Part shown: positions 39,814 to 57,586 of the stretch, in pieces
Numbering within the stretch: position 1 is the stretch's first letter
How the letters are laid out: the number at the start of each line of letters is the position of its first letter
Source: Candidatus Magasanikbacteria bacterium RIFOXYC2_FULL_42_28
GTDB taxonomy: Bacteria > Patescibacteriota > Patescibacteriia > Magasanikbacterales > GWA2-37-8
DNA: 64,000 nt
Assembly: GCA_001784435.1 (NCBI GenBank)
Contig: MFQZ01000001.1
Coordinates: forward strand, 220,742-284,741
Direction: 5' to 3'
The notes under the pieces: generated by a model
Seen by the model: the letters and a program-made list of their open reading frames with translations, nothing else
What the model was told of the DNA's origin: nothing
Database searches by the model: none
Position numbers and translations under genes: made by a program

Positions 39814-39824
39814 AAACATCTAAA

Positions 39825-40553
39825 TTACTTTTTCTCTTCTTTTTTATCGCCCTTATCACCATCTTTCTTGTCTTCCTTCTTCTCACCATCCTTGGCTTCC
39901 GCGCCCTCTTCACCTTCGACTGGCTCTTCTTTCTTGCCGGCCACCTCAATCTTGCTAATATCGGCGGTCTTAGACGCTTCTTCCATGGCTTTAATCTGGT
40001 CTTCAGTCAAAGCCGGCTTGGCCGTAGCAATGACGCTCTCGCCTTGCGGTCTTGTTACTACCACACCGGCCGGCGCCTTCAGATCCTTCACACGAATAGA
40101 ATCCTCAAAAGTTTTCAACACGCTCAAATCCACCTCAACATATTCCACCAAGTCATTCGGCAGACATTTAACCTCCACACGGTCAAGATTTTTTACCAAA
40201 GTGCCACCCGATGATTTAACTATCGGCGATTCACCGACAAATTTCAATTCCACAAATACCGTAAGCTCTTTTTTCATATCAATCCGACGCAAATCAACAT
40301 GCGTAATTTTACCAGAAACCGGCTCAAATTGCAACTCTTGCACCAACACCTTACCGGCGTCCTTACCGTCAACTGTCAAATCCAACAAACTGGATTCGGA
40401 AGCATCCTTATAAATTTTGAAAAATTCATTGTATGGCAAAACCAAACTTTGATTTTCCTTCGTCACCCCGTACACTTCAGCCGGGATTCCATGTTCGGCG
40501 CGAACTGTTTCAGGTTTTTTCACCCGTAACATCGCAGACAACTGATAAGTCAT
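39825..40553 (-). CDS. rplY: 50S ribosomal protein L25 / general stress protein Ctc, with a K/E/D-rich C-terminal tail.
   Basis: MTYQLSAMLRVKKPETVRAEHGIPAEVYG N-terminus. Confidence 0.85.
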   Translation of the reverse strand: MTYQLSAMLRVKKPETVRAEHGIPAEVYGVTKENQSLVLPYNEFFKIYKDASESSLLDLTVDGKDAGKVLVQELQFEPVSGKITHVDLRRIDMKKELTVFVELKFVGESPIVKSSGGTLVKNLDRVEVKCLPNDLVEYVEVDLSVLKTFEDSIRVKDLKAPAGVVVTRPQGESVIATAKPALTEDQIKAMEEASKTADISKIEVAGKKEEPVEGEEGAEAKDGEKKEDKKDGDKGDKKEEKK

Positions 40554-40566
40554 AAAATATTTTTAA

Positions 40567-40890
40567 TTAATACCATTTTTGTTTTAAAAATTCGTAGCCC
40601 TCGATTACTTCATCCATCGTAATCTCTTCTTTATTATGCAGGCGCATCGCGTCGCCATAATTCAAATCCGTAACCATTCCTACCGAACTTAGTCCGGCCG
40701 GCGACACCATCACCATCGCGATAAACCCACCGCTACATTTCTCGCAAGTCAAATGCACCAAATTCGCCGCGCCGGCAGAATTTAATTTCTGTGCGCTGTT
40801 GGGGGAATAAATCCCGTTACAAAGCGGGCAATGCCCCATGAATTTTAACGCTTCCTTCCAGGAATCCGGTTGGATTTTGCCGATTGGCAT
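40567..40890 (-). CDS. Small zinc-ribbon hypothetical protein.
   Basis: CPLCNG ... CEKCSG, two CxxC pairs. Confidence 0.4.
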   Translation of the reverse strand: MPIGKIQPDSWKEALKFMGHCPLCNGIYSPNSAQKLNSAGAANLVHLTCEKCSGGFIAMVMVSPAGLSSVGMVTDLNYGDAMRLHNKEEITMDEVIEGYEFLKQKWY

Positions 40891-40937
40891 ATAGGCAACA
40901 GTTTAATATATTTTTAATAAAATGTCAATACCTTTGC

Positions 40938-41198
40938 TCATTCTTTCTTCTTTTCCAATTTAAGCAAATAAACAGAAATGAAAACAGCCACCAATGTGAT
41001 AATCAACGCATAAATCAGTTTTGCCCAAATACCATTGGCTTCCAAAGGGAATAATTGTTCAATAATTGCTTTAATAGCCTCATTCCACGCTAAACCAGAA
41101 ACCAGCCCCAACGCGGCCAATATATAACCTAAAGTTTTCTTTTTTACTTCATCGCCCAATTCTTTGCCTTGAGACACAAATTTTTCTTTAAGATCCAT
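40938..41198 (-). CDS. Small membrane protein of unknown function.
   Basis: 86 aa with two hydrophobic helices. Confidence 0.4.
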   Translation of the reverse strand: MDLKEKFVSQGKELGDEVKKKTLGYILAALGLVSGLAWNEAIKAIIEQLFPLEANGIWAKLIYALIITLVAVFISVYLLKLEKKKE

Positions 41199-41256
41199 AT
41201 TAATTTACCTTTGAAGTGTAATTATATTCTACCACTGATACCATTTTTTGTCCAAA

Positions 41257-42576
41257 TTATTTATTATCTTTAATCTTTCGCTTTTCACGTTGAAATTTAA
41301 TGGCAAACCGATGGGCTTCATCGCGCACTTTAATTAAAACCTCTAAATTTTTTTGCGCCCATTTAGGTACGGGCATGTCTTGTATTTTAGCATTAGTGCC
41401 GACCACCACCAAATCATTGCGCTTCCGTTTTGCGCCTTTGGCAATACCCACAACCGGAATATCTATTTTCAAATTATTTAACACTGATTTTACCGCGTTC
41501 ACCTGGGGCACGCCGCCATCAATTAAAAATACAGCTGGCATCGGCCACTCGCTATGTTTCAATCGGCGCGACAAAACTTCCTTTAAACAATCAACATCGC
41601 TTTGGCCAACCACGGTTTTAATATTAAATTTGCGATAATCGGTTTTAGACGGCACACCACCTTTAAATACTACCATACTCCCAACCTTGCCAGTAGCGCC
41701 CAAATTGGAAATATCATAACCTTCAATCCGCATCTCACCGCTCTGCCCGGACGGATCAATGGTAAAACTTTTATTCAAAAGCGCGATATCCTGAATTCTA
41801 TTTAACGCTTTAATTTGATTTCGCAATCTCCCCGCTTCTTCAAAATTTTCCACGCGCGATGCTTGAACCATTTTTGTATTCAAGCTCCGCAGAAGCGATT
41901 TTTTTTGGCCACTTAAAAATAATTTCAAAGGATTGATAACTTTCTGACGATATTCAGCTGGCGTGATTCCCCCATCGCAAACGCCCAAACACAAACCAAT
42001 CTGCCGATAAAAACACGGACGCGTTTGCCCGGGCGAACAAGTAGAATACAAAAATAAACTCCGCAAAATTTTCAAAGTCGCCGCCGTATTTAATCCTGGG
42101 TACGGGCCAAACACGTTTTTCCTTCCCCTGCCCGAGGGGAGGGCGAGGGTGAGGTGGGAGCGGGCGCCGTTTTTTGTCATTCCGAGCGAAGCTCGCGCCG
42201 ACGAGGAATCTCCATCCAACTCATGCTGTCGCACCACCAAAACCTTCGGAAATTTATCCTTTGTAACCACCAAATAATTCCAACTTTTATCATCTCTCCA
42301 ATCAACATTATACTTCGGCTGTTTTTCCTTAATATATTTCCCCTCCAAAATAATCGCCTCCAAAACCGAATCTGTCACTTCTACTTTTATATCCACGACT
42401 TCATGCATCATTTGTTCGATTGGGCGACTACTGCGCGCGCCCCGAAAATACGACCGCACCCGTGAACGCAAACTCGTTGCCTTGCCAACATAAATTAATT
42501 CTTTTTTTGAATTATAAAATAGATATACGCCGGGTGCATCGGGTAATTTTTTTAATTTTTTCTGGATATCTAACAT
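41257..42576 (-). CDS. uvrC: Excinuclease ABC subunit C. Short form lacking the C-terminal HhH region. Carries an in-frame repeat insertion.
   Basis: GIY-YIG N-terminus (GVYLFYNSKKELIYVGKATSLRSRV). An RNase H-like/EndoV-like domain (GYDISNLGATGKVGSMVVFKGG). Insertion translates to ...SSARASLGMT...LALPSGRGRK. Confidence 0.85.
   Translation of the reverse strand: MLDIQKKLKKLPDAPGVYLFYNSKKELIYVGKATSLRSRVRSYFRGARSSRPIEQMMHEVVDIKVEVTDSVLEAIILEGKYIKEKQPKYNVDWRDDKSWNYLVVTKDKFPKVLVVRQHELDGDSSSARASLGMTKNGARSHLTLALPSGRGRKNVFGPYPGLNTAATLKILRSLFLYSTCSPGQTRPCFYRQIGLCLGVCDGGITPAEYRQKVINPLKLFLSGQKKSLLRSLNTKMVQASRVENFEEAGRLRNQIKALNRIQDIALLNKSFTIDPSGQSGEMRIEGYDISNLGATGKVGSMVVFKGGVPSKTDYRKFNIKTVVGQSDVDCLKEVLSRRLKHSEWPMPAVFLIDGGVPQVNAVKSVLNNLKIDIPVVGIAKGAKRKRNDLVVVGTNAKIQDMPVPKWAQKNLEVLIKVRDEAHRFAIKFQREKRKIKDNK
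42121..42222. repeat. Composite insertion in uvrC: a family C G-rich element (CCCCTGCCCGAGGGGAGGGCGAGGGTGAGG) followed by a family B short element.
   Basis: Family C copies are also at 45647-45686, 57254-57297 and 59931-59970. Confidence 0.8.
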
Positions 42577-42586
42577 ACTAATTTAA

Positions 42587-42616
42587 TTGACATAACATAC
42601 CATTTAATTATATAAT
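42587..42616 (+). promoter_or_regulatory. Sigma70-like promoter upstream of a small GC-rich ORF.
   Basis: TTGACA (42587-42592), an 18-bp spacer, then TATAAT (42611-42616). Confidence 0.5.
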
Positions 42617-42647
42617 CCCAGCGAACCCCAACTCTTCGGAGGAAGAC

Positions 42648-42797
42648 ATGTTGCACGCATTGTTCGCATGTGGAGCGGCGGTTCTCCTTGGCCTCACCAT
42701 TGGCTTCGTCTCGGCGACGTACTTCAACCGACGCGCCCGCGCCAAGATGAACAAGCTGTTCGAACAGAAGCCCAACGCTAGCGATCAGCTCATCTGA
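42648..42797 (+). CDS. Small (49-aa) single-TM peptide with foreign GC3-rich codon usage.
   Basis: A GGAGG RBS at 42638-42642 precedes MLHALFACGAAVLLGLTIGFVSATYFNRRARAKMNKLFEQKPNASDQLI. It is too short for the ORF track. It sits between uvrC and uvrA. Confidence 0.45.
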   Translation: MLHALFACGAAVLLGLTIGFVSATYFNRRARAKMNKLFEQKPNASDQLI

Positions 42798-42937
42798 CCA
42801 CGAACTCCACCCGGGGCCACCAGAAAGGAGGTTCCAAGAACCACCCGCGCCCCACTTTGGCTGTAAAGTATATCATGATTTAAGTCATGATATAAATATA
42901 TATTTTACAATCAAAGTGGCGGGTGGTTTTTGTTTTG

Positions 42938-45589
42938 CTATATAACTCTTTTTAAATAAGCCCCCGTAAAACTCGCCGCCTTTTTCGCCACCTCCTCCGG
43001 CGTCCCCACCGCCACCACCTGCCCGCCCTTATCGCCCCCTTCCGGCCCCAAATCAATCACCCAATCCGCCGCTTTTATTATATCCAAATTATGCTCAATT
43101 ACCAAAATCGTATTTCCTTGCGATACCAAACGCTGTAAAACTTCTAATAACTTCCGCACATCATCGTAATGCAAACCGGTCGTCGGCTCATCTAACAAAT
43201 ACAAAGTTTTCGTCGTGCCATAACGCGCCAACTCCCGTGACAATTTAATTCGTTGCGCTTCCCCACCCGACAAAGTCGTGGCCGATTGCCCCAAAGTTAA
43301 ATAATCCAAACCCACTTCGTTTAAAATTTTCAACTTGTCATAAATCATCGGAATATCGCGGAAAAATTCCTCGGCGTCTTCAATCGTCATTGCCAAGACC
43401 TCGGCAATATTTTTTCCGTTATAACTCACAGCCAATGTCTCATTCGTAAACCGCAAACCCTTACACACATCACAAGTCACTTCCACACTCGGCAAAAAAT
43501 GCATTTCAATTTCCAGCACGCCTTTGCCCTCGCAATTTTCGCACCGGCCGGCATTTTTGACATTAAAACTAAACCGCGAAGCCGTGTACCCCCGCATGCG
43601 CGCCTCGGCCGTTTCGGCAAACAACGCCCGAATATGGTCAAAACATTTGGTATAAGTCGCCGGGTTACTGCGCGAAGTCCGACCAATGGACGACTGGTCA
43701 ATCGTTATCACACCATCCAAATATTCCAAGCCGGAAACTTCCAAACAATTTTCCAATTTCTTTTTCTGGCGAAATATTTTGTTCATGACAGCCGGCCGCA
43801 AAACTTCATTCATCAAAGTTGACTTACCCGAACCCGACACGCCGGTCAAACAGACAAACCGGCGCAACGGAATTTCCACATTAATATTTTTTAAATTATG
43901 CAAATTCGCTTTTTTAATTTTTAATTTCGGCGTCGCGCGATCAACCTCACGCCGTTTCAATGGCATGGGAATAGTTACTTCGCCACGCAGATACTTGCCG
44001 GTTAAAGAACTGCTTTTGTGTTTCGCTGACAGCAAATCTTTCACCGTGCCAGAATACACAATCTCGCCCCCATGCTTCCCCGCCCCGGGACCAATATCCA
44101 CAATCCAATCACTCACCTTAATTGTATCCTCGTCGTGTTCTACTACTATTATCGTATTTCCCGCATCGCACAACGCCCGCAAAGTTTTCACCAACCGGTC
44201 ATTATCACGTTGATGCAAACCAATTGTCGGCTCATCCAATACATACAACGCCCCCACAAGGCGCGTCCCCACCTGCGACGCCAGTCGTATCCGTTGCGCT
44301 TCCCCGCCCGACAAAGTCCCGGCCTTACGATTCAAAGTTAAATAATGCAACCCCACGTCATACATAAACTGCAATCGATTTTGAATTTCTTTCAAAACCA
44401 TTCCGCAAATTTGCATCGTACGTTCAGGCAAATCTAATTCCAACGCCGCGAAAAACTCGCGCGCCTCACTAATAGACAAATTCGTAATTTCCCAAATATT
44501 TTTCCCGCCAATTTTTACGCTTAGCGCGTTAACATTCAAACGCTTACCCAAACACACCGGGCAATCTTCCACTGAAAATAATTCTTTCGTGCCAAGCCCA
44601 GTACACGCCTCGCAATATCCATACGGACTATTAAACGAAAAAAGTCGTGGCTCAATTTCCGGAAAACTAAAACCATCTTTCGGACAAGAATACAAAGTAG
44701 AGAATGTCTGTTCTTCGCCGTCCGCATAGATCACAGCGCACAACCCCTTAGACAAATTCACCGCCGCCTCCACCGCTTCGGCAAGTCGTTGGTTATCTGT
44801 CATCCCGAGCGAGCCCTTAAGGGGCGACGAGGGATCTCCATCCGCCGGTAATTGGGATAGAGATTTCTCCTTCGTCGTCGAAATGACAGCGAGTGGCACT
44901 CGATCAACCACCACCTCAATCGTATGCTTAAAATTCTTTTCCAAAATTATCCGCTCGCGCAAACTTTTTATTTTCCCATCCACCCGCACTTCCAAATACC
45001 CAGAATTATACAAATCATAAAGCATCTGATAATACTCCCCCTTCCTGCCTCGCACCACCGGCGACAAAACAACAATCTCTTTACTGTCATTTCGAGCGAG
45101 GCCTTTTGGCCGACGAGAAATCTTCGCGTCTTCGTCCGTCACTTTGGAAATTGGAAATTGGAAATTGGAAATTCTCGCACCCATCTCATCCACCGTCATC
45201 TTCTCAATCTTACTCCCACAATCCGGACAATGTGGCACCCCCACACGCGCAAAAAGAACCCGCAAATAATCATAAATTTCCGTAATCGTCGCCACGGTCG
45301 AACGCGGATTCGCACTATGCGCCTTTTGATCAATCGAAATCGCCGGCGACAACCCTTCAATTTCATCCACATCCGGCTTTTGCATCCCACCCAAAAACTG
45401 CCGAGCGTAAGCCGACAATGACTCAATATACCGCCTCTGCCCCTCGGCAAAAATCGTATCAAACGCCAAAGAAGACTTGCCCGATCCCGACAACCCCGTA
45501 AAAACAATCATCTGATTGCGAGGCAACTCCAAATTAACATTTTTCAAATTGTGTTCGCGTGCGCCTTTGATAATAATTTTGTTTTGCAT
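42938..45589 (-). CDS. uvrA: Excinuclease ABC subunit A with at least two in-frame repeat insertions.
   Basis: Tandem ABC ATPase modules (GLSGSGKSSLAF...; GVSGSGKSTL), zinc-finger Cys clusters and ABC signature motifs. Confidence 0.92.
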   Translation of the reverse strand: MQNKIIIKGAREHNLKNVNLELPRNQMIVFTGLSGSGKSSLAFDTIFAEGQRRYIESLSAYARQFLGGMQKPDVDEIEGLSPAISIDQKAHSANPRSTVATITEIYDYLRVLFARVGVPHCPDCGSKIEKMTVDEMGARISNFQFPISKVTDEDAKISRRPKGLARNDSKEIVVLSPVVRGRKGEYYQMLYDLYNSGYLEVRVDGKIKSLRERIILEKNFKHTIEVVVDRVPLAVISTTKEKSLSQLPADGDPSSPLKGSLGMTDNQRLAEAVEAAVNLSKGLCAVIYADGEEQTFSTLYSCPKDGFSFPEIEPRLFSFNSPYGYCEACTGLGTKELFSVEDCPVCLGKRLNVNALSVKIGGKNIWEITNLSISEAREFFAALELDLPERTMQICGMVLKEIQNRLQFMYDVGLHYLTLNRKAGTLSGGEAQRIRLASQVGTRLVGALYVLDEPTIGLHQRDNDRLVKTLRALCDAGNTIIVVEHDEDTIKVSDWIVDIGPGAGKHGGEIVYSGTVKDLLSAKHKSSSLTGKYLRGEVTIPMPLKRREVDRATPKLKIKKANLHNLKNINVEIPLRRFVCLTGVSGSGKSTLMNEVLRPAVMNKIFRQKKKLENCLEVSGLEYLDGVITIDQSSIGRTSRSNPATYTKCFDHIRALFAETAEARMRGYTASRFSFNVKNAGRCENCEGKGVLEIEMHFLPSVEVTCDVCKGLRFTNETLAVSYNGKNIAEVLAMTIEDAEEFFRDIPMIYDKLKILNEVGLDYLTLGQSATTLSGGEAQRIKLSRELARYGTTKTLYLLDEPTTGLHYDDVRKLLEVLQRLVSQGNTILVIEHNLDIIKAADWVIDLGPEGGDKGGQVVAVGTPEEVAKKAASFTGAYLKRVI
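44797..44890. repeat. Full-length family B palindromic element in frame in uvrA.
   Basis: Near-identical to 4325-4446 (argS). It translates to DGDPSSPLKGSLGMT. Confidence 0.85.
45084..45180. repeat. Family B variant plus a family E (GGAAATTGGAAATTGGAAATT) repeat in frame in uvrA.
   Basis: CTGTCATTTCGAGCGAGGCCTTTTGGCCGACGAGAAATCTTCGCGTCTTCGTCCGTCACTTTGGAAATTGGAAATTGGAAATTGGAAATTC. Confidence 0.8.
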
Positions 45590-45600
45590 ACATTACAATA

Positions 45601-45686
45601 TTGTCATCCCGATGAAAATCGGGATCTCTGTCCAACGTTCACTCAATTTTCCCCTCCTTTTCAAGGAGGGGCGAGGGGGTGGTTAT
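45601..45686. repeat. Family A hairpin plus family C G-rich element upstream of uvrA.
   Basis: TTGTCATCCCGATGAAAATCGGGATCTCTGTCC ... CCCCTCCTTTTCAAGGAGGGGCGAGGGGGTGGTT. Confidence 0.8.
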
Positions 45687-45834
45687 CACCAAACGCCAAA
45701 ATGACCCAAAAGTGGGTCGCAATATATAAGTTGGAATAAAAGAACTACCTATACCATACCAATTTTGTCTTAAAAAGTCAATTGACCGTATGGTGAATTT
45801 AAGGTAAAATTAAGTAAACTTATTATATATTATT

Positions 45835-46362
45835 ATGTCTGAATCAATAAACAATAATATATCCTTTAAACCGCTTTCTGCTGTTGATCTTCCACTCACC
45901 CACAAGTGGCTTACTTCATCACATGTTAAAGAAGGATATGGTCACGGCAAACAAACAATCGCGGACATAGAAAAGAAATATATTCCGCGAATCAACGGCG
46001 AAACACCCACATCCTGTTTTATTATTTTTTATGATAATGCGCCCATCGGACAAATTCAAATGTATAAAATAAATGATTATCCCGATTACAAAAAAATAAT
46101 TCAAATCGATCAAAGCGCCGCCGGTATTGATTTGTTTATCGGAGAGAAAGATTTTCAACACAAAGGTCTCGGCAGTGTCATTATCCAAAAATTTTTAAAA
46201 GATTTTGTATTTAAAAAATTAAATGTTGAGAGTTGCATCATCGGACCAAACCCAAACAACATCGCCGCAATTAAAGCATACGAAAAAGCGGGGTTTAAAT
46301 ATTTAAAAACGATAATCAATCCGGATGGTGAAGATGAATATTTAATGGAAAAAGAAAAATAA
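45835..46362 (+). CDS. GNAT-family N-acetyltransferase resembling aminoglycoside 6'-N-acetyltransferase AAC(6')-Ib-type enzymes.
   Basis: WLTSSHVKEGYG...IAAIKAYEKAGFKYLKTIINPDGEDEYLMEKE parallels the AAC(6')-Ib blocks WLNRSHIVEWWG and AIRCYEKAGFERQGTVTTPDGPAVYMVQ, recalled from memory. Confidence 0.6.
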   Translation: MSESINNNISFKPLSAVDLPLTHKWLTSSHVKEGYGHGKQTIADIEKKYIPRINGETPTSCFIIFYDNAPIGQIQMYKINDYPDYKKIIQIDQSAAGIDLFIGEKDFQHKGLGSVIIQKFLKDFVFKKLNVESCIIGPNPNNIAAIKAYEKAGFKYLKTIINPDGEDEYLMEKEK

Positions 46363-46387
46363 TTCTATAAAAATCTAACAACCAAAA

Positions 46388-47008
46388 ATGCAAAACTTCG
46401 CCCTAATCGGCACAATCCTATCCATCCACGTCATGGCCTGGCTCACACCCGGCCCTCTTTTTGTATTGATAATCCGAAATTCTCTCGTTTATTCGCGAAA
46501 GATCGGCTTTTGGACTGCGCTCGGATTTGCTCTAGGCAATTTTATCCATATTACACTCGCCGTTTTTGGGATCTCGCTTATTATCCAAAGTTCGCCACTC
46601 GCATTCAGCACTGTCAAATTTTTAGGCGCTGGCTATCTAATATATTTGGGTATCAAAACCTTACTGATGAAAATTAGAACGCAGAAAACCGATACGCCCA
46701 CTGAACACGATAACATCACGGTGCCCCAAGCAATAAAAATTGGCTTCTTAACCAACATCTTAAGCGCGGGCGCATATTTATTCTTCGCCAGCATTTTTGC
46801 CACCGTGTTATCAACGGCTACTTCATCATGGGTAGTGGCAATATTAGCAATTGCGATGCCACTAAATACTTTTGTTATGGCCTCAATTTTATCCCTATTT
46901 TTTACCCACCACAAAATTAAATCAATATATATCAAATTCCAATATATTTTAAATAAATGTTTGGGCGTGGCACTAATATTATTCGCCTTAACAATTGCTT
47001 TTAAATAA
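46388..47008 (+). CDS. LysE/RhtB-family amino-acid (or small-metabolite) exporter.
   Basis: Six TM helices. N-terminal LTPGPLFVLII motif typical of the LysE superfamily. Confidence 0.75.
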   Translation: MQNFALIGTILSIHVMAWLTPGPLFVLIIRNSLVYSRKIGFWTALGFALGNFIHITLAVFGISLIIQSSPLAFSTVKFLGAGYLIYLGIKTLLMKIRTQKTDTPTEHDNITVPQAIKIGFLTNILSAGAYLFFASIFATVLSTATSSWVVAILAIAMPLNTFVMASILSLFFTHHKIKSIYIKFQYILNKCLGVALILFALTIAFK

Positions 47009-47429
47009 TAAATTTATTACCGCTTCTAAACAAATTTACGTCCACCCCGAACATACCGAACATGCTTTTGATTTGCCTTTTTGGCGAGACAACGAAAAAC
47101 TATGGGCTCTCAAAGTTCCGGTGGAAGAAATAAATATCAGCGAATTACTGTGGATTTTTGATATTCCATTTTGGGAAGATGTCGATGGTAACATTGTAAT
47201 TACTCCTAACGAAGTTATTAATAACCCAGATCAATTTATAGAACACTACAACAAAATTCAGGCCACAGACACTTCTTATCCGATTGACATAATGAAAAAC
47301 AAAAAGGGAAAATGGCTAACTTTGGACGGGCTACACCGATTGGTAAAATTATTTTTAAATAAGAAAACGAAAATTCGCGTCCGAAAAATTCCACCTGAAT
47401 TAATCCACCTTACGGCACGAGACGAATAA
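46995..47429 (+). CDS. ParB/Srx-fold (ParB-like nuclease domain) small protein.
   Basis: PIDIMKNKKGKWLTLDGLHRLVKLFLNKKTKIRVRKI matches the ParB N-terminal-domain pattern (..g.y.liDGhHRl.A......I.v). Confidence 0.5.
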   Translation: MLLNNKFITASKQIYVHPEHTEHAFDLPFWRDNEKLWALKVPVEEINISELLWIFDIPFWEDVDGNIVITPNEVINNPDQFIEHYNKIQATDTSYPIDIMKNKKGKWLTLDGLHRLVKLFLNKKTKIRVRKIPPELIHLTARDE

Positions 47430-47445
47430 ATTAAAGAAATCAAAT

Positions 47446-47886
47446 ATGAACGGCATCGTTATCACGACAATAAAAAACCAAGACGAAATCGAATTCCTGC
47501 GTGGCCGGCAATCATTTGAATATACTTATAACGATGAAACCATTGATTCACTTAAAAAACATTTTGACCCGGAAAACAGTTTATATTTGCTCGCAAAAAA
47601 AGGAAGTGAATTTGCAGCTTTTTGTTCGATTGATAGAGGCTGGTGGGAAGAAAATATCTTTTTCATTCGTGAAATTTTAGTAGACCAGAATTTTCAAAAA
47701 CTTGGAATAGGAGAAAAATTAATGCAAAAATGTATAGAATACGCCAAAAGTAAAGGCACAATTGGAGTAGTCACAGAAACTGATTTTAAAAATAAACCGA
47801 TGCAAGGATTGTGCAAAAAACTCGGCTTCAAAGAATGGAATAACCCCCAGTGGAAAAATGGTATTGCTTATAGATTAATATTTTGA
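47446..47886 (+). CDS. GNAT-family acetyltransferase.
   Basis: Q/R-x-x-G-x-G/A-like region VDQNFQKLGIGEKLMQKCIEYAK and a C-terminal LGFKE motif. Confidence 0.65.
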   Translation: MNGIVITTIKNQDEIEFLRGRQSFEYTYNDETIDSLKKHFDPENSLYLLAKKGSEFAAFCSIDRGWWEENIFFIREILVDQNFQKLGIGEKLMQKCIEYAKSKGTIGVVTETDFKNKPMQGLCKKLGFKEWNNPQWKNGIAYRLIF

Positions 47887-47889
47887 CCC

Positions 47890-48363
47890 ATGCCCAAAAT
47901 AATCGTAATCCGCGGCCCACTCGGCGTTGGCAAAACCACGGTCGCCAAAATTTTAGCGCAAAAACTTGACGCTCAATATTTATCGTTGGACAAAATTTTG
48001 GATGATAATGATTTAGCGCCCGCGGACGGAATTCCGATTGAAAATTTTTTAAAAGCCAACGAAATAATTTTGGATTTAGTTGGGCAAAGTAATGAAACTT
48101 TTATAATTGACGGCTGTTTTTACTACCAAGAACAAATTGACGACTTGCAAAAAAAATTTAACGACCAAGTGGTATTTTTTACACTCATGAGTACGGTGGA
48201 AAAATGTATTGAGAGAGATGCCAAACGTGAAAAAATTTACGGCGAGGATTCGGCTCGGTATGTGTATGATATTACCAGTAAAATTCATACTGGCCAGGAA
48301 ATTGATAATACTAATTTGACCGCGAAAGAAACGGTGGACAAAATAATGAAGTATTTAAAATAA
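47890..48363 (+). CDS. Small P-loop kinase (AAA_33/TmrB-like).
   Basis: Walker A GPLGVGKTT. 157 aa. Resembles TmrB and chloramphenicol-phosphotransferase-like small kinases. Confidence 0.55.
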   Translation: MPKIIVIRGPLGVGKTTVAKILAQKLDAQYLSLDKILDDNDLAPADGIPIENFLKANEIILDLVGQSNETFIIDGCFYYQEQIDDLQKKFNDQVVFFTLMSTVEKCIERDAKREKIYGEDSARYVYDITSKIHTGQEIDNTNLTAKETVDKIMKYLK

Positions 48364-48367
48364 AATT

Positions 48368-49084
48368 ATGGACAATCCCACTATTCAATCATCGGCTACT
48401 GCCTTTGCCAGAAAAAATAGAAAAAGAATCGCGAAGGAACGAACGGACAAAAATAAATATCAACCGGACGAAACGCCGGTCTCGGTATTTATGGCCGGAT
48501 CCCCTGGCGCCGGAAAAACTGAATTTTCTAAAAACATCATCTCCATTCTTGAGAAAGGCAGAAAACACCAGGTAATCCGAATTGATGGCGACGACATCCG
48601 CCACGAACTACCTGGATATACTGGCAACAATTCCTATTTATTTCAAAGCGCCATATCATTGATTGTGGAAAAAATTCATGACTTTGTTTTAACACAAAAA
48701 CAAAGTTTCGTCCTAGACGGAACTTTTTCAAAACATACCAAAGCCGCTGAAAATATTAAACGTTCTTTAGACAAAGGACGCGGGGTGTTTATTTTCTATG
48801 TCTATCAACATCCAGCCACCGCTTGGAAATTTACGGAAAAACGCGAACAAGCCGAGGGACGCAATATACCAAAAGAATCATTTATTGAACAATTTATCGG
48901 GGCCAAGGAAACGATAAACCAAATTATAGAAAAATTTGGTGAAAAAGTGACTGTTTTTCTTGTAAAAAAGGACTATGAAAAAAATACAGTCGAAGAAGTT
49001 GTAAAAATAGAACCAAACGACCAGCCGATTGACGAATATATCAAAGAACGGTATAATAAAGAAGACCTAGAAAAAATGATATGA
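48368..49084 (+). CDS. Zeta-toxin-family P-loop kinase (PezT/zeta-like).
   Basis: AGSPGAGKT ... IRIDGDDIRHELPGY ... FVLDGTFSKH parallels the zeta toxin pattern GGQSGAGKT ... IIDGDSFRSQHPHY ... LLIEGTLR. Confidence 0.65.
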   Translation: MDNPTIQSSATAFARKNRKRIAKERTDKNKYQPDETPVSVFMAGSPGAGKTEFSKNIISILEKGRKHQVIRIDGDDIRHELPGYTGNNSYLFQSAISLIVEKIHDFVLTQKQSFVLDGTFSKHTKAAENIKRSLDKGRGVFIFYVYQHPATAWKFTEKREQAEGRNIPKESFIEQFIGAKETINQIIEKFGEKVTVFLVKKDYEKNTVEEVVKIEPNDQPIDEYIKERYNKEDLEKMI

Positions 49085-49266
49085 GTATATTTAGTTTTTT
49101 TGCGGCAACAAAAGAAAAACAAAAAACCGGCGAATTCGCCAGATTCTTTTTGCACGCTTCTGAAAAAGAAAAAAAGCAAGTATTCAAAGACGCGGCCAGA
49201 CGAGCAAACGAAGACCAACGCGCACTCGTTAAAAACGTCAAAGAACTTCAACATAAGGCCACCTGA
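49081..49266 (+). CDS. Small K/E-rich helical protein translationally coupled to the zeta-like kinase. Candidate partner or antitoxin.
   Basis: Start overlaps the kinase stop (ATGA). 61 aa. A terminator hairpin immediately downstream overlaps its stop codon. Confidence 0.45.
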   Translation: MSIFSFFAATKEKQKTGEFARFFLHASEKEKKQVFKDAARRANEDQRALVKNVKELQHKAT

Positions 49267-49283
49267 CAAGGTGGCCTTTCTTG
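49255..49283 (+). terminator. Rho-independent terminator.
   Basis: AAGGCCACC-TGACAA-GGTGGCCTT followed by TCTTGAT. Confidence 0.75.
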
Positions 49284-49309
49284 ATATTATATACGGATAA
49301 AAAAATAAC

Positions 49310-49693
49310 ATGCTTTTCAAAACCGTCAATCACGTCGCCATTATCGCCTCCGATTTGGAAATTTCCAGAAATTTTTACATTGGCAAACTTGGTTTTAAAT
49401 TAATTAAAACAATTGACCGGTCAGAAAGACAATCAACGATTTTATATTTAGACGCGGGAAACATTATAATTGAATTAATGTCTTTCCCCAATCCCCCAAA
49501 ACGCCCGGCCTGGCCAGAAGCTTGCGGTTTGCGACACTTAGCATTTGATGTGGAAAATTTTGATGAAATGATAACGAAATTAAACGAGCTTGGTATCACG
49601 ACCGAACAACCTCGCGTTGACGCGCGCACGGGAAAAAGATTGACTTTTTTTAATGATCCGGATAATTTACCGCTGGAAATTTGTGAGATGTAA
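49310..49693 (+). CDS. VOC-family protein (glyoxalase/bleomycin-resistance fold).
   Basis: VNHVAIIASDLEISRNFYIGKLGFKLI N-terminal beta-alpha-beta-beta-beta module. 127 aa. Confidence 0.7.
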   Translation: MLFKTVNHVAIIASDLEISRNFYIGKLGFKLIKTIDRSERQSTILYLDAGNIIIELMSFPNPPKRPAWPEACGLRHLAFDVENFDEMITKLNELGITTEQPRVDARTGKRLTFFNDPDNLPLEICEM

Positions 49694-49697
49694 TTTT

Positions 49698-50330
49698 ATG
49701 AAAAAACTTAAATGGATATTACCAATATTAATCTTCACGACTCTCGCTATCATTTGGCTTGCCGATTTTAAAATTGAACACGCTACCAATGATTTAACAT
49801 ATAATGACGCCACCGAAATCCCCCACAACAAAGTCGGCCTACTTTTAGGAACCACAAAATACGCCCCATCCGGACAATTAAACGGCTACTTTGTTTACCG
49901 CATCCAAGCGGCCGTTGACTTGTTTAATAACCAAAAAATTGATAACATTGTGATTAGTGGCGATAACGGCACCAAAAAATATAACGAGCCGGAGGATATG
50001 AAAAATGAATTAGTGGCGCGTGGCATTCCGGAGAACAAAATATATTTGGACTACGCCGGTTTTCGGACTTATGATTCGGTCGTGCGATTAAATAAAATTT
50101 TTGGCCAAGATAAATTTACGATTATATCCCAAGAATTTCACAACCGGCGCGCAATATATATCGCCCAAGCCAAAAATTTAGAAGCCGTCGGGTATAACGC
50201 GAAAGATATCAATACTTACCGCGGATTGCGGACAAAATTGCGCGAAAAATTAGCGCGCGTCAAGGTATTTATTGATCTACTGACAAATAAACAACCAAAA
50301 TTTTTAGGCGAAGAAATTGAAATAAAATAA
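49698..50330 (+). CDS. SanA/YdcF-family (DUF218) membrane-anchored protein.
   Basis: N-terminal TM anchor, then NIVISGDNGTKKYNEPEDMKNELVARGIPENKIYLDYAGFRTYDSVVR, the DUF218 core. Confidence 0.65.
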   Translation: MKKLKWILPILIFTTLAIIWLADFKIEHATNDLTYNDATEIPHNKVGLLLGTTKYAPSGQLNGYFVYRIQAAVDLFNNQKIDNIVISGDNGTKKYNEPEDMKNELVARGIPENKIYLDYAGFRTYDSVVRLNKIFGQDKFTIISQEFHNRRAIYIAQAKNLEAVGYNAKDINTYRGLRTKLREKLARVKVFIDLLTNKQPKFLGEEIEIK

Positions 50331-50335
50331 TTAAA

Positions 50336-50372
50336 ACAAAAAAATCAGCTGACACACGCGCTGATTTTTTAA
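50336..50372. terminator. Bidirectional rho-independent terminator between the convergent SanA and pgsA-like genes.
   Basis: AAAAAAATCAGC-TGACACACGC-GCTGATTTTTTAA. Confidence 0.75.
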
Positions 50373-50380
50373 TATATTTT

Positions 50381-51004
50381 TTAGATCCCGTAAGTAAACA
50401 AGCTAATCAACGCGAAACCAATCGCGAACCCAAACAGCCAAAAAGCGACCGCAAATAACAATGGGAAATCCAACAAAAGCGCGAGCAAAACCAAAAATGT
50501 CGCCACCACTTGTAGCCACATTTTTATTTTCCCCCAAACATTCGCCATCCGCGTAATGTGAAAATATTGATGCGAAATATACGCGGCGATAATAAACAAA
50601 ATTTCTACGACCAAAATTGTCAAACCCAACCAATCGGGAAAATAACGAAACACCAAAAGCAAAACCATTGAACCGATCAATAGTTTATCGGCCAAAGGAT
50701 CAAATAATTTGCCAAAATCGGTAATTTGACCACGCATCCGCGCCATTGAGCCATCCATGGCATCGGTAAAAGCGGTTAAAATAAACAGAGTCGCGCCCCA
50801 AGCGTAATGATTGAACAACACCAACAAAAATACCGGCGGAGTCATAATTATGCGCAAAACCGTTAAGCGGTTGGGGGTGACGCTCGGTGGCAGATAACGC
50901 AATAAATACCGATACAAAAAAACATCGTGAACATGGCGTTCAGTTGATTTTTGATAAACAAACAGATCGTCGTGATGATTTTTGAAATTATCAATCCATT
51001 CCAT
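50381..51004 (-). CDS. pgsA: CDP-alcohol phosphatidyltransferase (PgsA-like).
   Basis: DAMDGSMARMRGQITDFGKLFDPLADK matches the D-G-x2-A-R-x8-G-x3-D-x3-D motif. Multi-TM protein. Confidence 0.75.
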   Translation of the reverse strand: MEWIDNFKNHHDDLFVYQKSTERHVHDVFLYRYLLRYLPPSVTPNRLTVLRIIMTPPVFLLVLFNHYAWGATLFILTAFTDAMDGSMARMRGQITDFGKLFDPLADKLLIGSMVLLLVFRYFPDWLGLTILVVEILFIIAAYISHQYFHITRMANVWGKIKMWLQVVATFLVLLALLLDFPLLFAVAFWLFGFAIGFALISLFTYGI

Positions 51005-51024
51005 ACGATAATTAGTATATCAAA

Positions 51025-53079
51025 TTATAGACGTTTCTTCAATTCTCCAATCTCATCCCGCAAAATCGCGGCCAATTCAAATTCCAATTCTTTGGCGGCT
51101 TTGCGCATTTCCATTTCTTTTTCTTTGATTATTTCCGGCAAGGGCCGCGTGTCGCCTTTTAGGTCTAATTCCAAAATTTTCTTGGCCCTACTGTGCCCGC
51201 GTTTGCCCGCGCCCGCCGTCCGCGTCAAACCAAACTCACTTAAAATATCGCGAATATTTTTTTGAATGGTTTTGGGCGTGATATTATGTTTTTTGTTATA
51301 GGCAATTTGCACGGTTCGCCGCCGATCAGTTTCCGACAACGCGCGTTTAATTGAACCGGTGATACTGTCGGCATACAGCACTACTTGGCCATTGACATTG
51401 CGCGCCGCCCGGCCGATAGTTTGAATTAAACTCGTTTCAGAACGCAAAAACCCTTCTTTGTCCGCATCCAAAATAGCCACCAGCGACACCTCGGGCAAAT
51501 CCAAACCCTCGCGCAACAAATTCACCCCGACAATCACATCAATTTTCCCGCGCCGCAGATCAGTAATAATTTCAATACGTTCCAAAGTATCAATTTCACT
51601 GTGAAGATACTTTACTTTCACACCTTTTTTCAACAAATAATCATTTAAATCCTCGGCCATTTTTTTGGTGAGCGTCGTGACCAAAACGCGCTCATTAATT
51701 TTTACGCGCTCGTCGATACGAATAATTAAATCATCAATTTGAGACAAGCCACTCTCGCTATTTTTGATTTTTGATATTTTATTTTTGATATTTCCCCCCG
51801 TCACCGGCCTAATAATCACCTCCGGATCAATCAACCCCGTCGGACGCACAATTTGTTCCACCACTTGTTCACTTTCTTTAATTTCAAACACCGACGGCGT
51901 GGCCGAAACAAAAATCATTTTGTTCACGCGCTTTTCAAATTCCGGATAAGTAAGCGGACGATTGTCGCGCGCTGACGGCAATCTAAACCCATGCTCAATC
52001 AAAGTGTTTTTACGCGCCCGATCGCCATTAAACATTCCGCCGATTTGCGGAATAGTAACATGCGATTCATCCACCACTGTTAAAAAATCCTTATCGCACT
52101 CGCGAAAATAATCCAACAAAGTAAACGGCGCGTCCCCAACAGCGCGCCCATCAAAATATCGCGAATAATTTTCAATCCCACTGCAATAACCAATATTTTT
52201 TATCATCTCCAAATCATAACGCGTCCGGCGTTTTAGACGTTCGTGTTCCAAAACTTTGCCTGCGTCTTCAAAATATTTTAATTGATCTTCCAAATCACTG
52301 CGAATTTGCGCAAAAGCCCGTTCGGTATCTGACGGCGATGCTACATAATGTTTGGTGGAATACAGCCAAACCTCACTCGCATCGCGCACCACTTTTCGCG
52401 TTACCACATCCAAAATTTCCACACGCGCAATTTTATCCGAAATTTCTAAACGATAAATTTTTTCTTCATGCGCCGGCACAATTTCTAATACGGGACCTCG
52501 CAAACGAAATTGTCCGCGCGCCAAATCCCCATTCGTCCGTTCAAATTGCAAATCCACTAATTTTCGCACAACACCATTGCGATCAATTTTCTGTCCCAAT
52601 TCCAACCGCAAAGCCGAACGCAAATATTCCGTGGGTGAGCCCAGACTGTAAATCGCCGACACGGACGAAACCACAATCACATCTTTGCGCGACAGTAACG
52701 CCTGCGTGCACGCATGACGCAAACGATCAATTTCTTGGTTAATCATCGCCTCTTTTTCAATATAGGTGTCTGAACCCGGCATATATGCCTCGGGCTGGTA
52801 ATAATCATAATAAGAAACAAAATATTCCACGGCGCTACCCGGAAAAAATTCGCGGAATTCATTACACAACTGCGCGGCCAAAGTTTTGTTGTGCGCCATT
52901 ACCAAAGTCGGCAACTGCGTTTTTTCAATGACGTTGGCAATCGTAAAAGTTTTGCCCGAACCCGTTACACCCAACAATGTCTGTCGACTCATACCCGAAT
53001 CCAAACCAGCGGTTAATTTCTTAATCGCTTGTGGTTGGTCGCCGGCCGGCTTCATTTTTGTTTTAAGTTTAAATTTCAT
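51025..53079 (-). CDS. uvrB: Excinuclease ABC subunit B.
   Basis: MKFKLKTKMKPAGDQPQAIKKL N-terminus, GVTGSGKTFT Walker A, helicase motifs, and a C-terminal UVR domain (AKELEFELAAILRDEIGELKK). The listed ORF extends to 53175 through the upstream repeat. The start at 53079 is more plausible. Confidence 0.9.
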   Translation of the reverse strand: MKFKLKTKMKPAGDQPQAIKKLTAGLDSGMSRQTLLGVTGSGKTFTIANVIEKTQLPTLVMAHNKTLAAQLCNEFREFFPGSAVEYFVSYYDYYQPEAYMPGSDTYIEKEAMINQEIDRLRHACTQALLSRKDVIVVSSVSAIYSLGSPTEYLRSALRLELGQKIDRNGVVRKLVDLQFERTNGDLARGQFRLRGPVLEIVPAHEEKIYRLEISDKIARVEILDVVTRKVVRDASEVWLYSTKHYVASPSDTERAFAQIRSDLEDQLKYFEDAGKVLEHERLKRRTRYDLEMIKNIGYCSGIENYSRYFDGRAVGDAPFTLLDYFRECDKDFLTVVDESHVTIPQIGGMFNGDRARKNTLIEHGFRLPSARDNRPLTYPEFEKRVNKMIFVSATPSVFEIKESEQVVEQIVRPTGLIDPEVIIRPVTGGNIKNKISKIKNSESGLSQIDDLIIRIDERVKINERVLVTTLTKKMAEDLNDYLLKKGVKVKYLHSEIDTLERIEIITDLRRGKIDVIVGVNLLREGLDLPEVSLVAILDADKEGFLRSETSLIQTIGRAARNVNGQVVLYADSITGSIKRALSETDRRRTVQIAYNKKHNITPKTIQKNIRDILSEFGLTRTAGAGKRGHSRAKKILELDLKGDTRPLPEIIKEKEMEMRKAAKELEFELAAILRDEIGELKKRL

Positions 53080-53140
53080 TTGATATTTGAATTTTGAAAT
53101 TGATTGGAAATTGGAAATTTGGATTTTGACATTATCACTA
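53080..53140. repeat. Family E repeat at the uvrB 5' end.
   Basis: TTTGAATTTTGAAATTGATTGGAAATTGGAAATTTGGATTTTGACATTATC. Confidence 0.75.
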
Positions 53141-54232
53141 ATATCTTCGCACCACCATACTCTCCACCATCCCAATCATCAACAAATTAACAATCAAAGA
53201 AGAACCACCATAAGACACAAACGGCAAGGTAACACCGGTAACCGGCAATAACCCTAAATTCGCCCCCACATTAACAATAAATTGCCCGAACAACGCCACG
53301 GCCACACCGGAAATAAAAACAGCGTAAAAGTCGTCGCCACTTGAAGCCGCCAAGCGCAACAAACGCCACAATAAAAATCCAAACAAGACAATCACGGCCG
53401 CCGCGCCGGCAAAACCCAATTCTTCGGCAATGGACGCGAAAATAAAATCGGTCTGCGCTTCTGGCAAAAATTTTAATTGCGACTGCGAACCAAAACCCAA
53501 GCCCCTCCCAAACAAACGTCCGGAACCAATGGCAATAGTGGCTTGGGCGGTATTATAACCGGCACCCAGCGGATCACGCGCCGGATCAATAAAAGTAAGC
53601 ACCCGATCTTTTTGATAAGGCGCGAGTAAAAAAAACCAAGTTGCCACGCCCACGCCCACTAACAAAATCAATAACCCCATAATATATGAACGACGCACAC
53701 CCACAAGTACCATTGTTCCAAACCAAATCATGCCGGCAATAACCGCTGATCCCAAATCCGGTTGGAATAAAATTAAAATCACCGCGCTACCGGTAATGAT
53801 AGCCGTACCAAAGAAAAATAACGGGCGTTCAAAGCGACGACCGAAATTAGCCACCACATAAGCCAAAATTAAAATCAAACCCAGTTTAGCCAATTCCACC
53901 GGTTGGAAACTAAAACCATAAAAAGTAAACCAACCGGTCGTACCGCGAATATTTTCGCCAAAAAAAAGCACGGCCAAAAGTAAAATTAAACAAAAACCAT
54001 AAAACCATTTAGCATAAGCGCGCCAAAAATTCGGCGCGGTCGCGCTTGCCCCAAAAAATAATACCAAACCAATCCCGACCGCCAACAATTGCCTTTTTAA
54101 TAAAACCAATTCCGTCCCCCGCGACAAGTCAATACTATAAATTGCCGTTAAGCCCACGGCCGAAAGCAAAAAAACAGCCAACGCGAGCGGCCAATCAAAA
54201 TTACGCCAAGAATATTTTGCAAAAAAACCCAT
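53138..54232 (-). CDS. ftsW: SEDS-family peptidoglycan glycosyltransferase (FtsW/RodA).
   Basis: About 10 TM helices. FQPVELAKLGLILILAYV and a C-terminal PFVSYGGSS motif typical of FtsW/RodA. Confidence 0.8.
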   Translation of the reverse strand: MGFFAKYSWRNFDWPLALAVFLLSAVGLTAIYSIDLSRGTELVLLKRQLLAVGIGLVLFFGASATAPNFWRAYAKWFYGFCLILLLAVLFFGENIRGTTGWFTFYGFSFQPVELAKLGLILILAYVVANFGRRFERPLFFFGTAIITGSAVILILFQPDLGSAVIAGMIWFGTMVLVGVRRSYIMGLLILLVGVGVATWFFLLAPYQKDRVLTFIDPARDPLGAGYNTAQATIAIGSGRLFGRGLGFGSQSQLKFLPEAQTDFIFASIAEELGFAGAAAVIVLFGFLLWRLLRLAASSGDDFYAVFISGVAVALFGQFIVNVGANLGLLPVTGVTLPFVSYGGSSLIVNLLMIGMVESMVVRRY

Positions 54233-54250
54233 AGTGATAATATTCTCGGT

Positions 54251-55216
54251 TTACCGCGCTGGAACAATATATTCTGATTTATTGTATAAATTAATCAGCG
54301 GATAAACCACCACTTCGGACGCGGAAATATTGTCGGCAAAAGTGCGAATATCAACCGCCCGCCGACTTTGCGCCGTAAAGTTAGAAATTTGTAAAGGAGA
54401 AACCCCGGTCAAATCATTATTTTGCAAAAAAGCCACATAAAAATCCGGCTCGGTATAACCATAAGCAGAATTATTGGTTAAACTGAATTGCACCACGCCG
54501 GCATTGGCCTGACCATAAGTGGCCGGCACAAAAGTAAGATCAGACACGCTAAAATTCAACCGCTCGCTCTGCCAAGTAATACTATCAGGTATAGTGTGGC
54601 TGTCAATCCTTTGCCAGCGCACATTTTGAATAATAATATCACCTACCCCCGGACTAAAACTCTCATAACCAAAAAATACCAACGGCCGGGACTCGCCCGC
54701 CATAAACACTGCCGACTGCGCCGGCGTGGACGTACCATCTACCGCGAAAAAATAATCAAACGCTACCCTAAAACGAGCGTTGGGATTAGTAACTGTCGAA
54801 ATTAAATCATATTTACCCACCCCACCCGGCAAACCCAGCGGACTGCCAATTTGTAAAGGGGCGGCCCCGTAATGTTCATGCAAAACTGTATAATCTGGAA
54901 ATTGCGATAACTGTAACGCTAAATTTTCATCGCTTCTTAACCCCACAACGGCGTAAGTTACCCAATGAATTAAGCTGGGTACCCAAAGTAAAATGTTGAC
55001 GCCAATAATAATTCCAAACAGCCACTTACGCAAAGTAAATTTATGTTTTACATACCACATCGCTCGCTCAAATTCTTTTTCTTTAAACTCTCCGGTCGGG
55101 TCTTCATACTTGGAAAAATGGGTCGTCGCTGTCGGTAATCCAACACCGGTCGCGCCGGGTTTATTGGTAAATTTATCGTCTAATTGACTATACATAATAA
55201 TTAGTAATTTATACAA
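54251..55216 (-). CDS. Membrane-anchored hypothetical protein with a single TM and a large extracytoplasmic domain. Upstream of ftsW, so possibly divisome-associated.
   Basis: TM segment WLFGIIIGVNILLWVPSLIHWV. No catalytic motif. Confidence 0.4.
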   Translation of the reverse strand: MYKLLIIMYSQLDDKFTNKPGATGVGLPTATTHFSKYEDPTGEFKEKEFERAMWYVKHKFTLRKWLFGIIIGVNILLWVPSLIHWVTYAVVGLRSDENLALQLSQFPDYTVLHEHYGAAPLQIGSPLGLPGGVGKYDLISTVTNPNARFRVAFDYFFAVDGTSTPAQSAVFMAGESRPLVFFGYESFSPGVGDIIIQNVRWQRIDSHTIPDSITWQSERLNFSVSDLTFVPATYGQANAGVVQFSLTNNSAYGYTEPDFYVAFLQNNDLTGVSPLQISNFTAQSRRAVDIRTFADNISASEVVVYPLINLYNKSEYIVPAR

Positions 55217-55295
55217 TACCTATATTATACACGAAAAACACCGTAAAGAAAACCCTTGTGCGTGGACTTAAAATATGATAGAATATAGTTGTTAA

Positions 55296-57578
<2,283 letters not shown>

Positions 57579-57586
57579 TGCCACTC

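Follow-up and report, generated by a model that had tools for sequence, protein, structure and literature searches.

Nine consecutive plus-strand genes at 45835-50330 of a 64,000-nucleotide (nt) stretch of Candidatus Magasanikbacteria bacterium RIFOXYC2_FULL_42_28, a groundwater bacterium of the Candidate Phyla Radiation (CPR; contig MFQZ01000001.1, positions 220,742 to 284,741; the whole stretch is called the window), form an ordinary lineage-specific accessory islet in a cargo slot between uvrB and uvrA. The islet is probably a mosaic, in which small genes circulating singly, mostly within the CPR pool, stand beside one two-gene unit (genes 6 and 7) that would be a toxin-first toxin-antitoxin (TA)-like cassette. 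Besides that unit it contains two GNAT acetyltransferases, a LysE exporter, a ParB/Srx-fold protein, a small P-loop kinase, a YaeR-type VOC protein and a DUF218/SanA-like protein. The initial annotation of this DNA had taken the nine genes for a single module of small-molecule modification and self-protection. That proposal gains no support: elsewhere, homologues of genes 1, 3, 5 and 6 were found apart, and only genes 6 and 7 travelled together. The genes are as follows (lengths in amino acids, aa):

45835..46362, plus strand: gene 1, GNAT acetyltransferase, 175 aa, Acetyltransf_8, AAC(6')-Ib/Ie-like (PF13523, 72.7 bits).
46388..47008, plus strand: gene 2, predicted LysE/RhtB-type small-molecule exporter, 206 aa (Pfam LysE).
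46995..47429, plus strand: gene 3, 144-aa protein of a family found mainly in CPR genomes, overlapping gene 2 by 14 nt.
47446..47886, plus strand: gene 4, GNAT acetyltransferase, 146 aa, Acetyltransf_1 (Pfam, 62.5 bits).
47890..48363, plus strand: gene 5, small P-loop protein resembling nucleoside monophosphate (NMP) kinases, 157 aa (AAA_18/AAA_33; PDB 4cvn, E 4e-5).
48368..49084, plus strand: gene 6, predicted zeta/PezT-fold P-loop kinase, 238 aa (PF06414).
49081..49266, plus strand: gene 7, 61-aa partner of gene 6, with a 4-nt overlap (ATGA) with gene 6.
49310..49693, plus strand: gene 8, VOC / glyoxalase-I-like metalloprotein of the YaeR/SMU1112c family, 127 aa.
49698..50330, plus strand: gene 9, predicted DUF218/SanA-like membrane-anchored protein, 210 aa (alternative start 49653).

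The layout of open reading frames (ORFs) bore out the description of nine plus-strand genes interrupting a minus-strand run. Intergenic distances were -14 to +43 nt, the remaining long ORFs from 38704 to 55216 were all on the minus strand, and the gene order was L25, uvrC, uvrA, island, a pgsA-like gene, uvrB and ftsW. The public contig carries the same gene calls for the nine genes as the ORF list. Their proteins are identical to GenBank OGH88804-OGH88812 (locus tags A3J93_01800-01845) and are present on Rifle aquifer contigs too; clusters at 90% identity had 1-2 members per island protein, every member from the same Rifle population.

Slot content differed among lineages. All island proteins were compared by tblastn with loci extending up to 10 kb either side of uvrA, taken from the 80 closest UvrA sequences among GTDB species representatives (mostly Patescibacteria); the best UvrA relatives were from Magasanikbacteria-type genomes (69-77% identity). 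The order uvrB-uvrA-uvrC was retained in most related loci that could be judged by contig extent, with a uvrB-uvrA gap of 0-6 kb. Even at E 1e-2, genes 1-8 had no homologue at the slot in 80/80 loci, in agreement with the earlier suggestion that the island is accessory. The gap of the Magasanikbacteria relatives carried a lipoprotein gene, MsrB, a GIY-YIG gene, TA modules (RelB/YafQ plus MazF in locus L006, HicA in L007) and a DUF218 gene co-oriented with uvrB. Homologues of the relatives' lipoprotein and MsrB were not found within the window, nor were paralogues of the island genes elsewhere in it. Because its content changes with lineage, the uvrB-uvrA gap is a cargo site, and the island is an accessory, variable insert. 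The RelB/YafQ, MazF, HicA (with putative HicB), MsrB and GIY-YIG cargo lay at L006:8470-9694, L007:9344-9794, L008:9426-9812 and L010:9029-9292.

In having conserved flanks (uvrB, uvrA) and lineage-specific cargo (RelB/YafQ, MazF and HicA in relatives, a zeta-type cassette here), the slot resembles chromosomal hotspots or islets that collect TA modules; a recombinase or attachment site was not found for it. In Magasanikbacteria the gap behaves as a site where TA modules and small accessory genes collect, and it could be used to mark gene flow in the CPR.

The G+C content (GC) of the island genes was modestly lower than that of the other 42 window genes (0.373 vs 0.436; Mann-Whitney p = 0.0003), as was GC at third codon positions (GC3; 0.372 vs 0.429; p = 0.011), and some other window genes were as AT-rich as the island. 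No integrase or recombinase was found among the nine genes, no tRNA in the window and no direct repeat bracketing the segment; of the classical marks of a genomic island, variable presence and deviant composition were thus seen, and an integrase, tRNA, attachment (att) site and direct repeats were not. The island had also been described as free of the repeats that pervade its flanks. This is correct for the island itself and is not remarkable, as the GTCATYCCGA repeat core, with 24 copies in the window, was missing from the whole of 45613-59562 (14 kb). Freedom from repeats as a sign of foreign origin was rejected, since the adjoining 9 kb of housekeeping genes were equally repeat-free.

Comparison of homologous loci showed genes 6 and 7 as the sole apparent conserved unit of the island. 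A gene-7-like ORF lay 3' of the kinase in every CPR locus examined (L085-L090, 4 CPR genomes) and in eight prophage-like IMG/VR contigs (L116-L123; kinase 40-44% identical; GC 38-63%), and the pair was also present on plasmid pSA70-4 of Shewanella putrefaciens, with the small ORF labelled hypothetical in its annotation. Alignment of the small ORFs gave gene 7 a conserved core, F-F-x-[HN]-A-S ... K..V[FY] ... A...Q. An exhaustive search with gene 7 returned 64 representative clusters, nearly all of 56-65 aa and a few of up to 117 aa, none of them long enough to include the 238-aa kinase; gene 7 had no Pfam, NCBIfam or PADLOC match. Recurrence of the pair, in the CPR as well as on proteobacterial prophage-like contigs and the Shewanella plasmid, makes a toxin-first TA-like cassette the probable reading, with gene 7 as candidate antitoxin or regulator. 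Such a cassette would suit a slot that bears other TA modules in relatives. An antitoxin of the epsilon/PezA type was not found immediately upstream of gene 6, where the 157-aa P-loop kinase (gene 5) is located; gene 5 was not next to gene 6 homologues elsewhere.

Gene 6 matched Zeta_toxin (PF06414) with 137.6 bits (gathering score 22.3; profile positions 4-183 of 199). A phmmer search of gene 6 against the PDB gave no zeta match; the relationship came out only with the family profile and with a fold search. With the AlphaFold2 (AF2) model of gene 6 (pLDDT 90.7), the top 8 Foldseek matches were zeta (1gvn, 3q8x) and PezT (2p5t), with template modelling (TM) scores of 0.63-0.71 and E ~1e-9, followed by ng_zeta1 and AvrRxo1 (overall TM 0.53-0.71). 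In the model, gene 6 shows the zeta/PezT/AvrRxo1 fold. Its GSPGAGKT (Walker A, Lys50), IDGD (Asp75) and DGT (Thr119) motifs were invariant in 28 family members, and profile alignment set IDGD on PezT IIDGDSFR, so that D75 corresponds to PezT D66 (zeta D67). PezT D66 is the catalytic base, and its mutation abolishes toxicity (residue roles from PMC3062530). The alignments show the predicted catalytic residues of gene 6 intact.

The gene 6 family had 2,943 homologues, the best 120 at 59-76% identity, and among named lineages it occurred in Magasanik-, Taylor-, Wolfe-, Kaiser-, Harrison- and Kerfeldbacteria. Identity was flat (62% in Magasanikbacteria vs 60-64% in the other five), unlike that of UvrA, which dropped from 77% to 55% across a comparable lineage range. 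Identity that does not track taxonomy suggests lateral spread of these families within the CPR. Homologues of gene 6 adjoined a NUDIX gene or a HepT/MNT pair, or bordered an island of restriction-modification and OLD-nuclease genes.

Gene 6 is like the toxins of the epsilon/zeta and PezA/PezT (PezAT) systems, which are UDP-N-acetylglucosamine (UDP-GlcNAc) 3'-kinases, in its strong Zeta_toxin match and best superposition, in retaining the Walker A lysine, the conserved threonine and an aspartate equivalent to the catalytic PezT D66, and in having a small, apparently co-translated partner and plasmid and defence/TA neighbourhoods. It differs from them in that the antitoxin there lies upstream, whereas the gene 6 partner lies downstream, has about 60 aa and an unrelated sequence. 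Gene 6 itself had marginal sequence similarity to zeta toxins of solved structure (profile E 6e-5 to 0.3), and the CPR clade was unusually conserved. A toxin-first arrangement is known from AvrRxo1:Arc1 (PMC4938570), in which a zeta-fold NAD kinase toxin of the same fold is followed directly downstream by a small helical partner. However, AvrRxo1 has ~420 aa and a secretion signal region vs the 238 aa of gene 6, and Arc1 (81-121 aa) has a KExFD...YExxYY motif that gene 7 lacks, gene 7 having its own F-F-x-[HN]-A-S ... Q.

In the proposed mechanism, genes 6 and 7 would form a translationally coupled, toxin-first type II TA-like cassette. The gene 6 kinase would phosphorylate a nucleotide-sugar or related nucleotide cofactor, and the small gene 7 protein would bind and restrain it; toxicity, neutralisation and substrate are all presumed. 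The cassette would aid retention of the islet, and the remaining genes would serve detoxification, export and the envelope, each selectable by itself and without relation to the others, rather than forming the steps of one pathway.

Close homologues of genes 1, 3, 5 and 6 were traced into about 30 other loci, and in sequence comparisons the families showed independent distributions. Gene 1 belonged to a rare family (76 homologues) with patchy spread in CPR and Bacillota; its homologues elsewhere lay after lepA or near an integrase-type gene, without LysE. The 436 homologues of gene 3 (best 120 at 63-82% identity) adjoined DUF1801, a Na/Ca exchanger, or type IV secretion system (T4SS) pilin plus HepT/MNT genes. 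The gene 5 family was conserved on metagenome contigs (17 loci at 57-69% identity), with ATP synthase, ribosomal, NUDIX, deaminase and isochorismatase genes as neighbours. Apart from the pair of genes 6 and 7, other island genes were not adjacent in the traced loci, save in two cases. In L094:6001-6973 and L095:2510-3482, from one other Patescibacteria genome, a gene 3 homologue (78%) was followed after 52 nt by a gene 5 homologue (41.5%), a hint that the ParB/Srx-fold protein and the small P-loop kinase may be functionally connected; in L106 a distant gene-1-like GNAT lay upstream of a gene 5 homologue. As the traced families sit in unrelated neighbourhoods, the cluster is a patchwork rather than a conserved pathway.

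The ParB/Srx fold that had been proposed for gene 3 was backed by its structure model, which points to a ParB-N/sulfiredoxin (ParB/Srx)-like fold. The family has an invariant D111-G112-x-H114-R115 (DGxHR motif). Gene 3 had no Pfam or NCBIfam match (ParBc or other family model), phmmer against the PDB gave nothing meaningful, and scanning its alignment against viral contigs gave no relative.

Two by-products of the analysis are of modest interest, the zeta-type kinase and its 60-aa downstream partner, conserved as a pair from CPR to proteobacterial plasmids (a mildly novel cassette), and the model-less ParB/Srx-fold family widespread in the CPR. In the open-access literature, no description was found of zeta-type systems in CPR/Patescibacteria or of the gene 7 partner, and nothing relevant on TA systems in CPR/Patescibacteria or on genomic islands of Magasanikbacteria. 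A bolder interpretation, possible but on balance doubtful, is that genes 6 and 7 represent an undescribed, widespread branch of the zeta-toxin superfamily, in which an intact kinase would be controlled by a ~60-aa downstream 'FFxxAS...Q' partner unrelated to epsilon, PezA and Arc1. Being conserved to the same degree as UvrA (59-76%), the CPR versions would perhaps not be mere addiction modules but recruited regulators of the flux of UDP-sugars or cell-wall precursors, in episymbionts that depend on a wall and scavenge precursors, and gene 3 would represent a small ParB/Srx-fold enzyme family.

Profile searches upheld the family names given earlier to genes 1, 2, 4, 6, 8 and 9, and gene 5 only as a generic P-loop kinase. 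Membership in resistance families was not upheld (AAC(6') 87 vs 260-450, Gar 38 vs 170, SanA 177 vs 363). Residues 5-172 of gene 1 aligned with PDB 4qc6/2pr8/1v0c (AAC(6')-Ie, AAC(6')-Ib; E 5e-23 to 1e-21). Gene 1 is thus like AAC(6')-Ib/Ie in its Acetyltransf_8 GNAT subfamily and in end-to-end alignment to their structures, but its ~87 bits with the NCBIfam AAC(6') models (TIGR04431 87.1, cut-off 260; NF033693 87.0, cut-off 340) make it a non-member by NCBIfam rules. Gene 4 had weak RimI and streptothricin-acetyltransferase similarity, all below cut-offs. By its profile match gene 2 is a LysE superfamily member (PF01810 92.2 bits > 25.6), below the cut-off of the RhtB (2A76) model (TIGR00949 126.7 < 183.95). 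The label 'TmrB-like' for gene 5 was not sustained; its best named match was Gar/GrdA (37.7 bits vs cut-off 170), CPT gave 16.6 vs 22, and the top matches were generic AAA_18/AAA_33.

Gene 8 is a VOC protein, as had been stated, and of the YaeR type (NF050075, the YaeR/SMU1112c equivalog, 153 bits > 140; residues 4-126 to 2-125 of 125; PDB 2p25, E 6e-34). The bleomycin flavour also given to it had no specific support, with Ble-like_N (20.4; cut-off 24.5) and Fos models (17-28 bits; cut-offs 170-310) all below threshold. Gene 9 scored 67.8 with DUF218 (> 27.6) and 177.4 with SanA NF008092 (< 363; aligned 19-224 to 5-209 of 239). Its identity to the DUF218 proteins of the slot in relatives was 27-40%, and those share ~38-62% among themselves; gene 9 as the inverted native DUF218 of the slot is of doubtful orthology, since it is an outlier among them.

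The gene content had been called unexpected in a reduced episymbiont genome, and this does not agree with a survey of 4,062 CPR genomes in which resistance-like genes were reported in 99.75%, with 1,831 aac hits, typically 20-40% identical to known determinants (Maatouk et al. 2021, PMC8651080). The island GNATs, VOC protein and kinase are of the same divergent kind. The survey, whose genes include AAC-like and Fos/VOC-like ones, lists single genes by similarity; the zeta-type pair, the slot between uvrB and uvrA and the present cluster do not figure in it. A caution follows for similar loci, in that tightly packed resistance-flavoured genes in a CPR genome do not amount to a resistance operon, since in the present island the families move separately.

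The proposal of one module for the modification, export and self-protection against a small molecule (aminoglycoside, tunicamycin or cell-wall-precursor analogue) would assign acetylation to genes 1 and 4, phosphorylation to genes 5 and 6, sequestration or cleavage to gene 8, export to gene 2 and envelope tightening to gene 9. LysE exporters and VOC proteins are found in resistance contexts, and their presence counts for the proposal. So do the operon-like packing with one promoter-like site 5' of gene 1, the full-length alignment of gene 1 to AAC(6')-Ie and AAC(6')-Ib, the Gar/GrdA gentamicin-resistance ATP-binding family as best named match of gene 5 with a faint CPT match, and a putative streptothricin acetyltransferase as best PDB match of gene 4. 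Against this, among the ~30 loci with close homologues no pair recurred but 6-7, resistance-family scores were all 3-5 fold under curated cut-offs, gene 8 belonged to the YaeR/SMU1112c equivalog and not to Ble or Fos, and zeta-family kinases are known as toxins that act on the cell's own UDP-sugars or NAD, not as drug kinases (PMC3062530, PMC5923241, PMC4938570). The proposal is accordingly considered unlikely.

Somewhat less unlikely, though still the weaker case, is that vertically inherited CPR housekeeping or metabolite-repair genes were gathered by rearrangement, with genes 6 and 7 as a conserved metabolic kinase and its regulatory subunit (e.g., nucleotide-sugar or NAD salvage control) instead of an addiction module. 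Families 3, 5 and 6 are widespread and very conserved, comparably to UvrA, gene 5 homologues have NUDIX, deaminase and isochorismatase-type genes around them, relatives natively carry a DUF218 gene in the slot, and the GC deviation is modest, other window genes being equally AT-rich. The genes were missing from the slot in all 80 relatives, however, and gene 6 identity did not follow taxonomy; the 6-7 pair was also on a plasmid and on proteobacterial prophage-like contigs, and beside HepT/MNT and restriction-modification genes in the CPR; gene 1 was rare with homologues reaching Bacillota, and gene 9 was an outlier to the native DUF218 genes. Arrival of all nine genes in one event, as the remnant of an integrated mobile element (a plasmid or prophage fragment) stabilised by the zeta-type cassette, is very improbable. 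A single contiguous opposite-strand block of lower GC would agree with it, as would zeta-type cassettes on plasmids and prophage-like contigs and the matches of genes 1, 2, 3 and 8 to PHROG families; but the segment had no integrase, recombinase, replication or structural gene, tRNA or flanking direct repeat, no other locus had more than the 6-7 pair in common with it, and the viral-contig scan with gene 3 was empty.

Several observations weigh against the preferred reading of a mosaic islet with a TA-like cassette. The adjacency of genes 3 and 5 in L094/L095 and the pairing of a gene-1-like gene with gene 5 in L106 may reflect some loose functional links, and the operon-like packing could mean co-regulation for a common purpose invisible to comparative context. 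There was no integrase, tRNA or flanking direct repeat to mark a mobile element, and the closest sampled relative was only 77% identical in UvrA, which limits inference on the time and mode of acquisition. The gene 6 family was conserved like UvrA across the CPR (59-76%), which is unusual for TA toxins and keeps the physiological-kinase reading alive. PADLOC has no model for gene 6, and a PADLOC scan of the nine proteins gave P-loop noise only. A kinase copy on Pseudomonas aeruginosa plasmid pNY5530-NR1 (L125:2432-3241) was without a recognisable small partner downstream. This copy belongs to the gene 6 subfamily, with 42% identity to the kinase of L117, and is flanked by PcfJ/strawberry-notch-like genes on one side and a lytic transglycosylase gene on the other.

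Transcription signals and the flanking gene on the uvrB side were as follows:

45590..45834, unstranded: divergent intergenic region between uvrA (minus) and gene 1 (plus), read from the sequence.
45602-45636: palindromic repeat element in the uvrA/gene 1 intergenic region (repeat pairs I5/I8).
45782-45810: promoter-like site upstream of gene 1, TTGACC-17-TAAAAT (consensus match only).
49255..49278, plus strand: GC-rich hairpin of 10 bp across the gene 7 stop codon, with a weak T tail (terminator scan, consensus match).
49263-49290: second promoter-like site, before gene 8 (pattern match only).
50344..50370, unstranded: hairpin ATCAGC-N10-GCTGAT (50344-50365) between an A-run and a T-run, in the convergent gap between gene 9 and the pgsA-like gene (read from the sequence).
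50381..51004, minus strand: CDP-alcohol phosphatidyltransferase (PgsA-like), 207 aa (PF01066, 105.9 bits), 20 nt downstream of uvrB.

The promoter-like sites and hairpins, as pattern matches, suggest two units, and genes 1-7 would be co-transcribed, as would genes 8-9. The hairpin at 49255-49278 is a possible terminator or attenuator at the boundary between them, and that at 50344-50365 a putative bidirectional terminator for gene 9 and the pgsA-like gene. The latter was read by eye, since the terminator scan was limited to loops of <=8 nt and its loop is longer.

The flanking gene called pgsA in the initial annotation does encode a CDP-alcohol phosphatidyltransferase, but its score with the pgsA equivalog TIGR00560 (92.8) was below the cut-off of 109.1. 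It had no tblastn match at E 1e-2 in any of the 80 related loci; being likewise missing from the slot in all relatives, it is probably part of the variable segment. In the adjacent uvrB (51025-53175), the longest ORF begins at TTG 53175 and crosses an AT-rich repeat (53079-53133), whereas the public call begins at ATG (684 aa); the N-terminal extension is probably an artefact.

GC-rich palindromic repeats with the core GTCATYCCGA occurred in frame inside conserved genes, in uvrA (minus strand; 44798-44866 and 45089-45166) and uvrC (42122-42195), and also at 4299-4442. The peptide insertions that they encode in UvrA (e.g., KSLSQLPADGDPSSPLKGSLGMT) were window-specific and missing from the UvrA of six relatives. 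These in-frame elements resemble Rickettsia palindromic elements. The element at 4299-4442 is shared with uvrA and gave a spurious 'uvrA' match in tblastn. AT-rich repeats of the TTGGAAATTGGAAATT type were located at 15432-15462, 18853-18883, 45143-45173, 53079-53133 and 61079-61195; they were intergenic, just 5' of genes, with one copy inside uvrA, and may be promoter-associated or another mobile repeat family. On the minus strand, 25750-33948 is a single ORF of 2,732 aa with high second-position GC (0.51). Giant surface proteins are typical of the CPR, and this ORF may encode one.

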